Virus record (IMG/VR): IMGVR_UViG_3300029448_000142
Span: 1 to 37,239 of that record
Source: a virus
Lineage: Duplodnaviria > Caudoviricetes
Reading direction: 5' to 3' (one strand)
DNA: 37,239 bases
Positions 11,224-18,969 of the stretch are shown here, in pieces. The position numbers and the translations under genes are program-made. A model generated the notes under the pieces. The model ran no database searches. It saw nothing but the letters and a program-made list of their open reading frames with translations, and was not told the origin of the DNA. How positions within the stretch are numbered: position 1 is the first letter of the stretch; each line of letters starts with the position of its first letter.

Positions 11224-11298
11224 GTGTCAATCGATTAATTTAGGTTAAATCTATTGCTATTCGTATGTAGGAAACTATAGAGCTGCTAGTTGCGTTAG

Positions 11299-11355
11299 TA
11301 GAGCAGTCGACTCATAATCGATTGGTCGTAGGTTCAAGTCCTACTGGGCCCACCA
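11299..11355 (+). other. attP core candidate: 3' three-quarters of a tRNA with CAT anticodon (Ile2/Met type); 5' part degenerate
   Basis: TAGAGCA-GTCGA-CTCATAA-TCGAT-TGGTC-GTAGG-TTCAAGT-CCTAC-TGGGCCC-ACCA; anticodon and T arms intact, no proper 5' acceptor/D strand; adjacent to integrase. Confidence 0.85.
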
Positions 11356-17556: not shown

Positions 17557-18969
17557 TTAAGACAGACCAGTAATCATTCCAGAATCGGAATGGTTCACAT
17601 GCTTGTTTGAAATCTCACCCACTACGAAATGAGTATCTGCATCGCCATTTTTACTAAGCAAAGTACGAGTAAACGGACGCAGTACACACTGCTTAAACAT
17701 GGATGGGTCAACCAAGAATGCGTGAGTTGACAATTGATTTCTGTTAATCACGGTTCGTAACTCTCCGAATGGAGTAAGTATTACGTCAATAACATTAATT
17801 AATGTCTTTGCATCGATTTCACGGTTACGACCAGTGGCTGTAGCGAACCCGGCCACAATAGTGGCATCAGCTGGCTTAATCATAAGCACAGTTGGCTCAG
17901 AACCATTGGTATAACAGGTCTGATGTAGCTCAATCAACTTAGCCTCTGTAAGCGCGTCAGTTGAACTGGAACCTGCATCTACAGTAGTAGAAATCTGTTG
18001 TGAGACAGAAGCCATCTTACGAGCAGCACTTGCACTACCTGTAACAGCAGCTTGGTCAACACCAATCATTGCCTTTTCAACATCAAGCTTTACAGCTTTT
18101 AGTGTCTTGGCGAGGGCATCATTCGCCAATCTTCGCTCAAGGTCGTTACTCTTGAACCGTCTTTATCCTTAAGACTGCTTATGCTTTCGACATAAGATGA
18201 GACTATATCATCACCTGTTGTATAAACAGGGTCATGCGCTTCCACCCACTTGGGTGTACTCCCTTCCGGGATAGTCGTTGCACCTTCCCTAGTAACTAGG
18301 GCTTGGCTCAGGATTACCATATCTTTCGACTTAGGCTTCCCCTGAATTCACATGATTTAGGCAGCGCATACCATTTTTAACGCTGTTTCTTTTGCTCGAC
18401 CATGGGTTTTAACCGCATCAACTGTACCAGCAACTTTAAATGCTTCACCGATGATTTGAGTCGTGTTAGAACGAACAGTAGGCTGACCAATAGCTGTAGT
18501 TGAAGCATCAGCTCCTTCTACGAGCGCATTGACTCCAGCTGCCCTAATAGAATCTTCAAGAAATTCAAATGTACGAGCAGATACTTTTTCAGTCTTTATC
18601 ATTGACTGGAATGGTGTGGATGTCACTTATGTTCAAGTAGGCTCGTTATTTCCTACTCCGTCCTCTTCAAGACTGCAGCATATTTCTATACTGGTCAGAC
18701 TATATCTTCACCCTCTATAAAAGAGGGGCTAGGTGCTTCCACTCACTTGAGTGTACTCCCTTTCGGGATAGTCGTTGAACCTTCCTCTTGCGAGGCTCGG
18801 CTGCTGATTGTCGGTAGCCACCACAGCTACTACGATTTTCCAGCAATTCTCCTAGTTACAACTATAGATTACTCTACAGCGGCCCAATCTGTTTAGGCGA
18901 AATGTTTGCAATCGTTTGCGAAACGTCTTCACTCATACCAATAGTTTGATAAGTTTGTAGTAAACTCAT
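17557..18969 (-). CDS. major capsid protein (SU10/DUF5309-type), spliced: join(18969..18895, 18623..18380, 18119..17557), 293 aa
   Basis: Joined exons read MSLLQTYQTIGMSEDVSQTIANISP|TSTPFQSMI...NTTQI...GRAKETAY|ALAKTLKAVKLDVE...LRPF...; 882 nt in frame; follows scaffold gene. Confidence 0.9.
18120..18379 (-). ncRNA. group I intron 2 (IA2-like, 260 nt, no ORF) in capsid gene
   Basis: P GAATTCAGGGGAA, Q AATCCTGAGC, R GTGCAACGACTA, S TGATATAGTCT; P1 CAGCGU/GCGCUG with U.G at the splice site; P10 GGUAU/AUGCC; terminal G 18120. Confidence 0.93.
18624..18894 (-). ncRNA. group I intron 1 (IA2-like, 271 nt, no ORF) in capsid gene
   Basis: P GAATTGCTGGAAA, Q AATCAGCAGCC, R GTTCAACGACTA, S AAGATATAGTCT; P1 GCCU/GGGC with U.G; terminal G 18624. 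Confidence 0.93.

Follow-up and report, generated by a model that had tools for sequence, protein, structure and literature searches.

A phage capsid-gene group I intron without P2 whose 3' tail is predicted to pair with the downstream exon

Introduction

Can a group I intron that leaves no room for the P2 helix still be a fitted, functional element, and if so, what about it is out of the ordinary? The question arises from a 37,239-nucleotide stretch of viral DNA (the window; IMG/VR record IMGVR_UViG_3300029448_000142), which makes up most of a phage genome. Nearly all of its genes lie on the minus strand, and they include a T7-like RNA polymerase, a DNA polymerase, a primase-helicase, an integrase and a head module. 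An earlier note, written from the sequence of the window alone, had singled out the second of two introns in one gene as a candidate minimal natural ribozyme. Textbook group I introns bind their exons solely through the guide sequence, which forms P1 and P10. What would be new here is a covarying third contact made from the intron's 3' end, not the loss of P2.

Results

Two group I introns split the major capsid gene

Both introns lie in the major capsid gene, and each matches the Rfam group I family at about 80 bits (intron 2 against the general model RF00028: 80.6 bits, E 3.9e-19). With both removed, the capsid frame is 293 amino acids long, the same length as many intact homologs (Table 1). 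Ten U^...G cuts near the ends of intron 2 preserve an open frame. Only the cut at 18380/18120, which removes 260 nt, yields KETAYALAK, the junction encoded by intronless relatives; the other nine fail to give the homolog junction. The insertion therefore falls in phase 1 inside a Tyr codon, Tyr107, as the earlier note had it. Beside the integrase gene, positions 11280-11352 (plus strand) resemble a tRNA with a CAU anticodon loop (Rfam, 32.7 bits; no call by ARAGORN) and may be an attP site or a degenerate tRNA gene. A promoter scan gave hits at chance level only.

Table 1 Features of the capsid gene and of intron 2 (window coordinates)
Feature	Position	Strand	Remarks
Major capsid exon 1	18895..18969	-	25 codons
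Intron 1	18624..18894	-	271 nt; IA2-type; P2 with GNRA loop; phase 0 after Pro25
Major capsid exon 2	18380..18623	-	Final 6 nt (18385-18380) are the P1 5' strand
Intron 2	18120..18379	-	260 nt; ORF-less; P2-less IA2-type; phase 1 in Tyr107
Internal guide sequence	18362..18372	-	P10 strand 18372-18368, P1 strand 18367-18362; covaries with exons
P1-P3 linker	18356..18361	-	6 nt at the P2 position; has the in-frame stop of unspliced exon 2
P3 5' strand, P4, P5, P6, P6a	18282..18355	-	P3 5' strand 18355-18349; P4 18345-18340/18313-18308; P6 18307-18305/18284-18282
P7	18276-18272 with 18205-18201	-	In block 18200..18278
P7.1, GUA linker, P7.2	18271-18260, 18256-18243	-	Within 18200..18278
P3 3' strand; P8	18238-18232; 18230-18214	-	Within 18200..18278
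J7/9 strand of P9.0	18199-18197	-	In block 18135..18199
P9 (GAAA loop); P9.1; P9.2	18196-18178; 18175-18159; 18157-18135	-	
PX intron strand	18123..18129	-	7-nt tail segment between the C18199-G18131 pair and the 2-bp P9.0 helix
P9.0 2-bp strand and terminal G	18120..18122	-	Strand 18122-18121 (pairs with 18197-18198); terminal G 18120
P10 target	18115..18119	-	Exon 3 nucleotides +1 to +5
PX exon strand	18107..18113	-	Exon 3 +7 to +13, Leu-Ala-Lys codons
Major capsid exon 3	17557..18119	-	phrog_1328; PF17236 on homologs

Among the 80 viral loci that encode this capsid, the same intron sits at this site in 18, the intronless junction is matched in 46, and one further locus (L039) holds a different P2-less intron there. 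The intron is patchily distributed among close relatives. Scanning viral contigs for the pattern turned up 18 loci, every one on a contig already found, while a metagenome scan returned 39, some from other genes, and a scan of prokaryote genomes revealed no true intron in 120 loci. After removal of duplicates and two truncated loci, the comparison set for intron 2 comprised 20 distinct sequences including the window, to which L103 is identical over the intron 2 stretch. The Ala codon just before the site (18381-18383) is GCG in 18 of 18 viral intron alleles, compared to 6 of 46 intronless ones and none of the intronless YALAK type. This linkage suggests either exon co-conversion or selection on P1; as an absolute marker of intron alleles GCG is wrong, given the six exceptions.

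RNA contigs, from 8 of the 24 listed runs, contained no joint from an intron-bearing allele. X9 and X10 show a join across the site, but on a contig that is about 88% alike and has GCC for the Ala codon, as intronless alleles typically do; the loose ends of X4 and X8 are of the same GCC type, and X5, X11 and X12 contain pieces of related introns.

Other introns were seen along the way. Across the 80 capsid loci (L001-L080), ORF-less group I introns occupy at least five sites, after codons 25, ~60, 107, ~113 and 223, in patchy combinations of up to three per gene; P1 is 4 bp in the P2-bearing introns at codons 25 and 223, and 6 to 8 bp in the P2-less ones. The intron at codon ~113 in L034 (2735-3000) is a more distant group I intron that blastn matches to neither intron of the window. 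A further family of P2-less introns occupies another gene at ten loci (L102, L117, L121, L130, L131, L133, L138, L139, L217 and L232), with an apparent ORF end in L1 and, judged by eye, an extended P10 of about 13 bp.

The core and guide sequence of intron 2 are intact

Intron 2 contains the group I core, P3-P4-P6-P7-P8 with the P, Q, R and S elements. Between P7 and the 3' strand of P3 lie P7.1 and P7.2, joined by GUA, the arrangement by which the IA2 subgroup is defined in the text of one study (PMC3428280); elsewhere the subgroup is reported to be heterogeneous (PMC11878797). Both hairpins show compensatory changes among relatives. The earlier note had called them the same as those of intron 1, which is nearly right: the two sets differ at three positions. 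Its remaining pairings we recovered where it had placed them, namely P1 (CAGCGU/GCGCUG, with a U.G at the site), P10, P3 and both strands of P4 (UCAGG/CCUGA).

The note had further argued that the guide sequence is adapted to both exons, and here the 20 relatives bear it out. Both sides changed in one of the six P1 pairs and in four of the five P10 pairs, P1 with a Thr codon and P10 with an exon change from Tyr-Ala to Tyr-Asn, so that the guide sequence tracks both exons. The U.G at the 5' splice site (U18380.G18367) and a P10 of 4 to 5 bp occur in 20 of 20 sequences, and the intron ends on G18120. Over 68 named pairs, 96.7% of cells are paired in the 20 distinct sequences, and 18 pairs show two-sided changes, compared to at most 4 when partners were slid as a control.

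No ORF-sized insert is present in intron 2 or its relatives (20 of 20, lengths 251 to 280 nt), and a scan of 34 window ORFs, several of which match no family, found no homing endonuclease gene. Taken together, the comparative sequence evidence supports intron 2 as a real, site-adapted group I intron without P2, and on the same evidence it is almost certainly active, that is, it should splice. The chemistry that we assume for it is inferred from the group I family. We also observed that the frame of exon 2 reads across the whole guide sequence (18379-18357) before it meets a stop codon within the P1-P3 linker. P1 could thus be unwound by ribosomes, which intron 1, through a stop of its own, would hold back until it had spliced.

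Loss of P2 is ordinary

That P2 is missing for want of room withstood closer inspection. No base of the 6-nt linker between P1 and P3 pairs with a probability above 0.13, and the gap is 5 to 6 nt in all 20 distinct sequences of the family; in intron 1, by contrast, P2 is present and the gap is 26 nt. The GNRA hairpin between P1 and P3 that marks a P2 of the T4 or Twort type, and whose loop docks on P8, is absent from intron 2. An alternative P2, or a reading of P1 as P2, can be set aside, since intronless alleles fix the splice site and the linker bases do not pair.

What did not survive was the step from a missing P2 to a minimal natural ribozyme notable through that loss, a reading to which we give next to no chance and which is refuted as to size and rarity. 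Intron 2 does lack P2, but it keeps P5, P6a, P7.1, P7.2, P9, P9.1 and P9.2. Its 260 nt are only 11 fewer than the 271 of intron 1, P2-less introns of 233 to 250 nt exist among the fetched loci, those at the same site reach down to 233 nt, and the Azoarcus intron, at about 205 nt, is smaller than intron 2. As to rarity, a trait-blind scan for IA2-like cores (126 loci, from 3 of the 64 parts of the collection) gave 123 distinct cores, 43 with P2, 15 without, 51 unclear and 14 unparsed, so that P2 is missing from 15 of the 58 phage IA2-like introns that could be classified. A search pattern built on the layout without P2 matched 111 viral loci, which represent 75 types and several genes and include a few chance matches. 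An active P2-less IA2 intron has, moreover, already been published (PMC3428280), and a review notes that P2 is missing in some group I introns (PMC3984707). We conclude that the loss of P2 is ordinary and adds nothing new. Two other IMG/VR records (L320 and L340) hold P2-less introns that place the layout outside capsid genes as well, one of them apparently in a T7-like DNA polymerase motif.

A predicted helix across the 3' splice site covaries with the exon

A plain fold of intron 2 places a 7-bp hairpin across the 3' splice site, 18129-18123 with 18113-18107 (pair probabilities 0.72 to 0.96), inside which lie both bases of P9.0, the terminal G and the target of P10. We refer to this helix, which the earlier note had missed, as PX. 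The names P9.0a and P9.0b for the P9.0 pairings come from the Twort structure. The tail is 9 to 10 nt long in introns with PX, compared to 4 to 6 nt in other introns at the same site.

Among the 20 distinct relatives, all seven PX pairs form in 16 and six in the other 4, the mismatch always being at the outer end. PX pairs were counted from a fixed GAAGA anchor, because MAFFT misregisters the tail. The third base of the Leu codon (+8) is C, G or U with G, C or A as its tail partner, and that of the Ala codon (+11) is C or A with G or U, which gives three compensatory changes that track synonymous exon changes. The sole inner departure from Watson-Crick pairing is a G.U. When tails were combined with non-cognate exons, an inner mismatch appeared in 19 of 21 combinations, and against shuffled exons PX was significant in 11 of 11 tail types (p <=0.007). 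Given 11 of these 20 sequences, RNAalifold also predicted PX and found two of its pairs compensated, although its alignment was misregistered. PX is retained even in L124, where a 22-nt hairpin insert (740-765), possibly the relic of a lost insert, separates the PX strand from the terminal G.

About three independent double changes underlie the covariation in the intron 2 family, and tail and exon, being adjacent, are co-inherited; L114 looks recombinant. On this comparative record we regard PX as very likely a selected RNA helix. Two other roles were considered and dropped: masking of a UUG start codon that is in frame with exon 3 but is not conserved, and blocking of a cryptic G at +3 (that G is absent in the L038 type).

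A second capsid site carries a similar tail

Introns without P2 also occur at another site in the capsid gene, V-S-P-Y-G-E, where 67 of the 120 loci resembled introns. They include short-tail types and 13 types with a tail/exon helix of 5 to 7 bp that reaches exon positions of about +8 to +14. These tails follow synonymous changes of Tyr (TAT/TAC) and Gly (GGC/GGA), and 12 of the 13 types pair better than with shuffled exons (p <=0.021). Short forms of the helix include the two P9.0 bases, whereas long forms leave P9.0 free. Between families, tail/exon energies are weak (means of -2.0 and -3.7 kcal/mol, versus -7.7 and -10.3 for cognate combinations). L481 (no P9.2 loop motif) and L294 (P1 misparsed) were left out of these comparisons; L272/L389 contains an assembly gap and is a probable chimera.

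In the trait-blind scan, a hairpin of at least 6 bp at the 3' end occurred in 4 of 62 distinct intron ends, compared to a rate of 0.003 in shuffled sequences, and all four belong to the two capsid families. A tree of 68 cores set the tail introns of the Tyr107 site (site C) in a clade of their own (starred, 96/92), apart from most of the V-S-P-Y-G-E family. One joint origin of both tail families is not rejected (AU p 0.259), so they may share it, and two independent origins of PX are unsupported. Either way, the tail is fitted to two unrelated exon sequences.

Short tails are common at both sites (21 of 32 types at site C, 15 of 28 at V-S-P-Y-G-E). That P2-less introns generally compensate by longer exon pairing held only in part: distal L1/exon pairing went beyond shuffles in 5 of 21 short-tail types at site C and in 3 of 15 at V-S-P-Y-G-E.

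Possible roles of PX

The reading we lean towards, by a modest degree, is that of a P2-less IA2-type intron, likely self-splicing, in which PX acts as a clamp on the 3' exon next to the terminal G and so aids exon joining. Free G would attack at the U.G pair of the 6-bp P1; the terminal G would then enter P7 via P9.0, with P10 aligning the 3' exon. As a local hairpin, PX would form first, once exon position +13 had been transcribed. Its 9-nt loop would contain both P9.0 bases, the terminal G and the five bases of P10, leaving the 3' splice site open beside the core and backing up a P10 of 4 to 5 bp. With its 7-bp stem crossed by a single base, PX would suit the geometry of an H-type pseudoknot. 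Once the capsid mRNA is ligated, ribosomes translating it would strip PX off. In favor of clamping, L1/exon pairing is weaker in tail-helix than in short-tail introns at the same sites (-4.9 versus -6.4 and -6.6 versus -8.9 kcal/mol), a contrast confounded by L1 length and kinship. An engineered duplex near the terminal G is described as increasing second-step yield (PMC11417360), and P10 strength as driving fitness in Tetrahymena (PMC7877785). Against it, most P2-less introns at both capsid sites manage without PX.

PX could instead delay the second step, keeping the 3' splice site off the G pocket until the first step is complete, which would spare free G the competition of the terminal G during the slow docking of a P2-less P1. 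Such competition is reported to slow the first step (PMC2588497), and all four surveyed hairpin ends are in P2-less introns. The short form at V-S-P-Y-G-E fits this idea better than clamping, since its -3 base follows the exon while the J7/9 partner stays unchanged, which implies that the helix overlaps P9.0. In the intron 2 family, however, PX reaches no further than -4, and 17 of 20 relatives form both P9.0 pairs, with a compensatory change in four, and the long V-S-P-Y-G-E forms also leave P9.0 free; we consider such a delay unlikely.

A role in RNA is not needed if PX is an inverted repeat made or repaired by replication template switching at a quasi-palindrome, leaving intron 2 a plain P2-less IA2 intron. 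The arms lie 9 nt apart, a known geometry for templated mutation, and L013 and L108 show two exon and two tail changes together. Template switching could explain the origin of the tail insertion, for which an inverted exon copy is a natural source. As an account of what maintains PX we find it decidedly improbable: departures from pairing are G.U or terminal, as in RNA helices, a pattern which argues that RNA pairing maintains PX, and the V-S-P-Y-G-E family likewise keeps a G.U within its helix. Adaptation of P1 and P10, which lie 250 nt apart, in the same lineages means that exon pairing is under active selection, and a hairpin at this place is confined to those 4 of 62 intron ends.

Mobility offers another role, in that PX would extend target recognition by the excised intron to about 18 bp (P1, P10 and PX together) when it reverse-splices into the mRNA of intronless capsid genes, and so help an ORF-less intron spread. 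The lack of a homing endonuclease gene in the scanned ORFs and the 20 relatives agrees with this, as does the patchy presence of the intron, and for 17 of the 46 intronless exons every pair with the window's tail can form. Yet tails match their own exon rather than the commonest intronless one, and RNA-based spread is described in a review as having no direct experimental support (PMC3984707), which makes mobility the least probable of these roles and a faint prospect overall.

Granted that PX is a selected helix, clamping rather than another role is in our judgment moderately probable. A broader proposal, that PX is a third exon-binding element besides P1 and P10, built from the loop within P9.0 and needed for efficient docking of the 3' splice site, and that it originated in two P2-less capsid families, or was retargeted from one to the other, and is re-tuned as often as the exon changes, is one we put forward tentatively, at somewhat less than an even chance.

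Discussion

A third exon contact would mean that these introns constrain synonymous codons deeper into the host gene. PX also gives a simple mutant-and-rescue handle on the docking or timing of the 3' splice site. In practice, these ORF-less introns split capsid genes and escape annotation. The phage C72C1 is a case in point: its capsid intron is unannotated, and the record shows two capsid fragments and three false ORFs listed as hypothetical genes. That intron (L100, OQ984150, 1470-1740) occupies the same site as intron 2, is P2-less and shares 81.6% identity over 86% of the intron. It differs in having a short tail without PX, and its L1 pairs with the exon from +9 onward over about 10 bp.

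The Twort and td introns have P2, and that of td is reportedly dispensable, going by the title of a 1992 paper by Salvo and Belfort. The 3' domains of the Twort orf142 and T4 td introns share the layout of intron 2, with P9 and a terminal stem before the tail, but their tails are short, unlike the PX tail. Twort orf142 is also a precedent for several similar IA2 introns in one structural gene (PMC10136302; AF132670). Group I introns in virion genes are likewise described for the capsid and tail genes of Cluster J mycobacteriophages (Pope et al. 2013, PMC3706429), where one is ORF-less, 265 bp long and spliced during late expression; these are other phages and other sites. Among the closest published layouts is that of the DNA polymerase intron of phage Pf-WMP3 (Kong et al. 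2012, PMC3428280), an IA2 intron with P1-P10 except P2, assigned to IA2, as intron 2 is, on P7.1 and P7.2 joined by GUA. It splices in vivo and in vitro according to the article, but unlike intron 2 it contains an HNH gene and resides in a polymerase gene. A helix between tail and exon was not found in the passages of that article that the analysis covered. Across the literature covered, which left figures, supplements (e.g., of PMC11878797) and the classic IA2 structure papers outside its scope, we found no natural helix between an intron tail and the 3' exon described, and PX is probably previously undescribed.

Counterparts by design do exist. In engineered ribozymes, extended guide sequences or homology arms add a duplex near the splice sites and raise efficiency (PMC6155759, PMC11417360), as we propose for PX. 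Those duplexes are artificial and extend from the ribozyme's 5' end or from the precursor's ends, whereas PX joins the P9.0 loop to the 3' exon. If our reading is true, PX would be nature's equivalent of engineered homology arms and could serve as a portable part in the design of trans-splicing, splicing and circular-RNA ribozymes.
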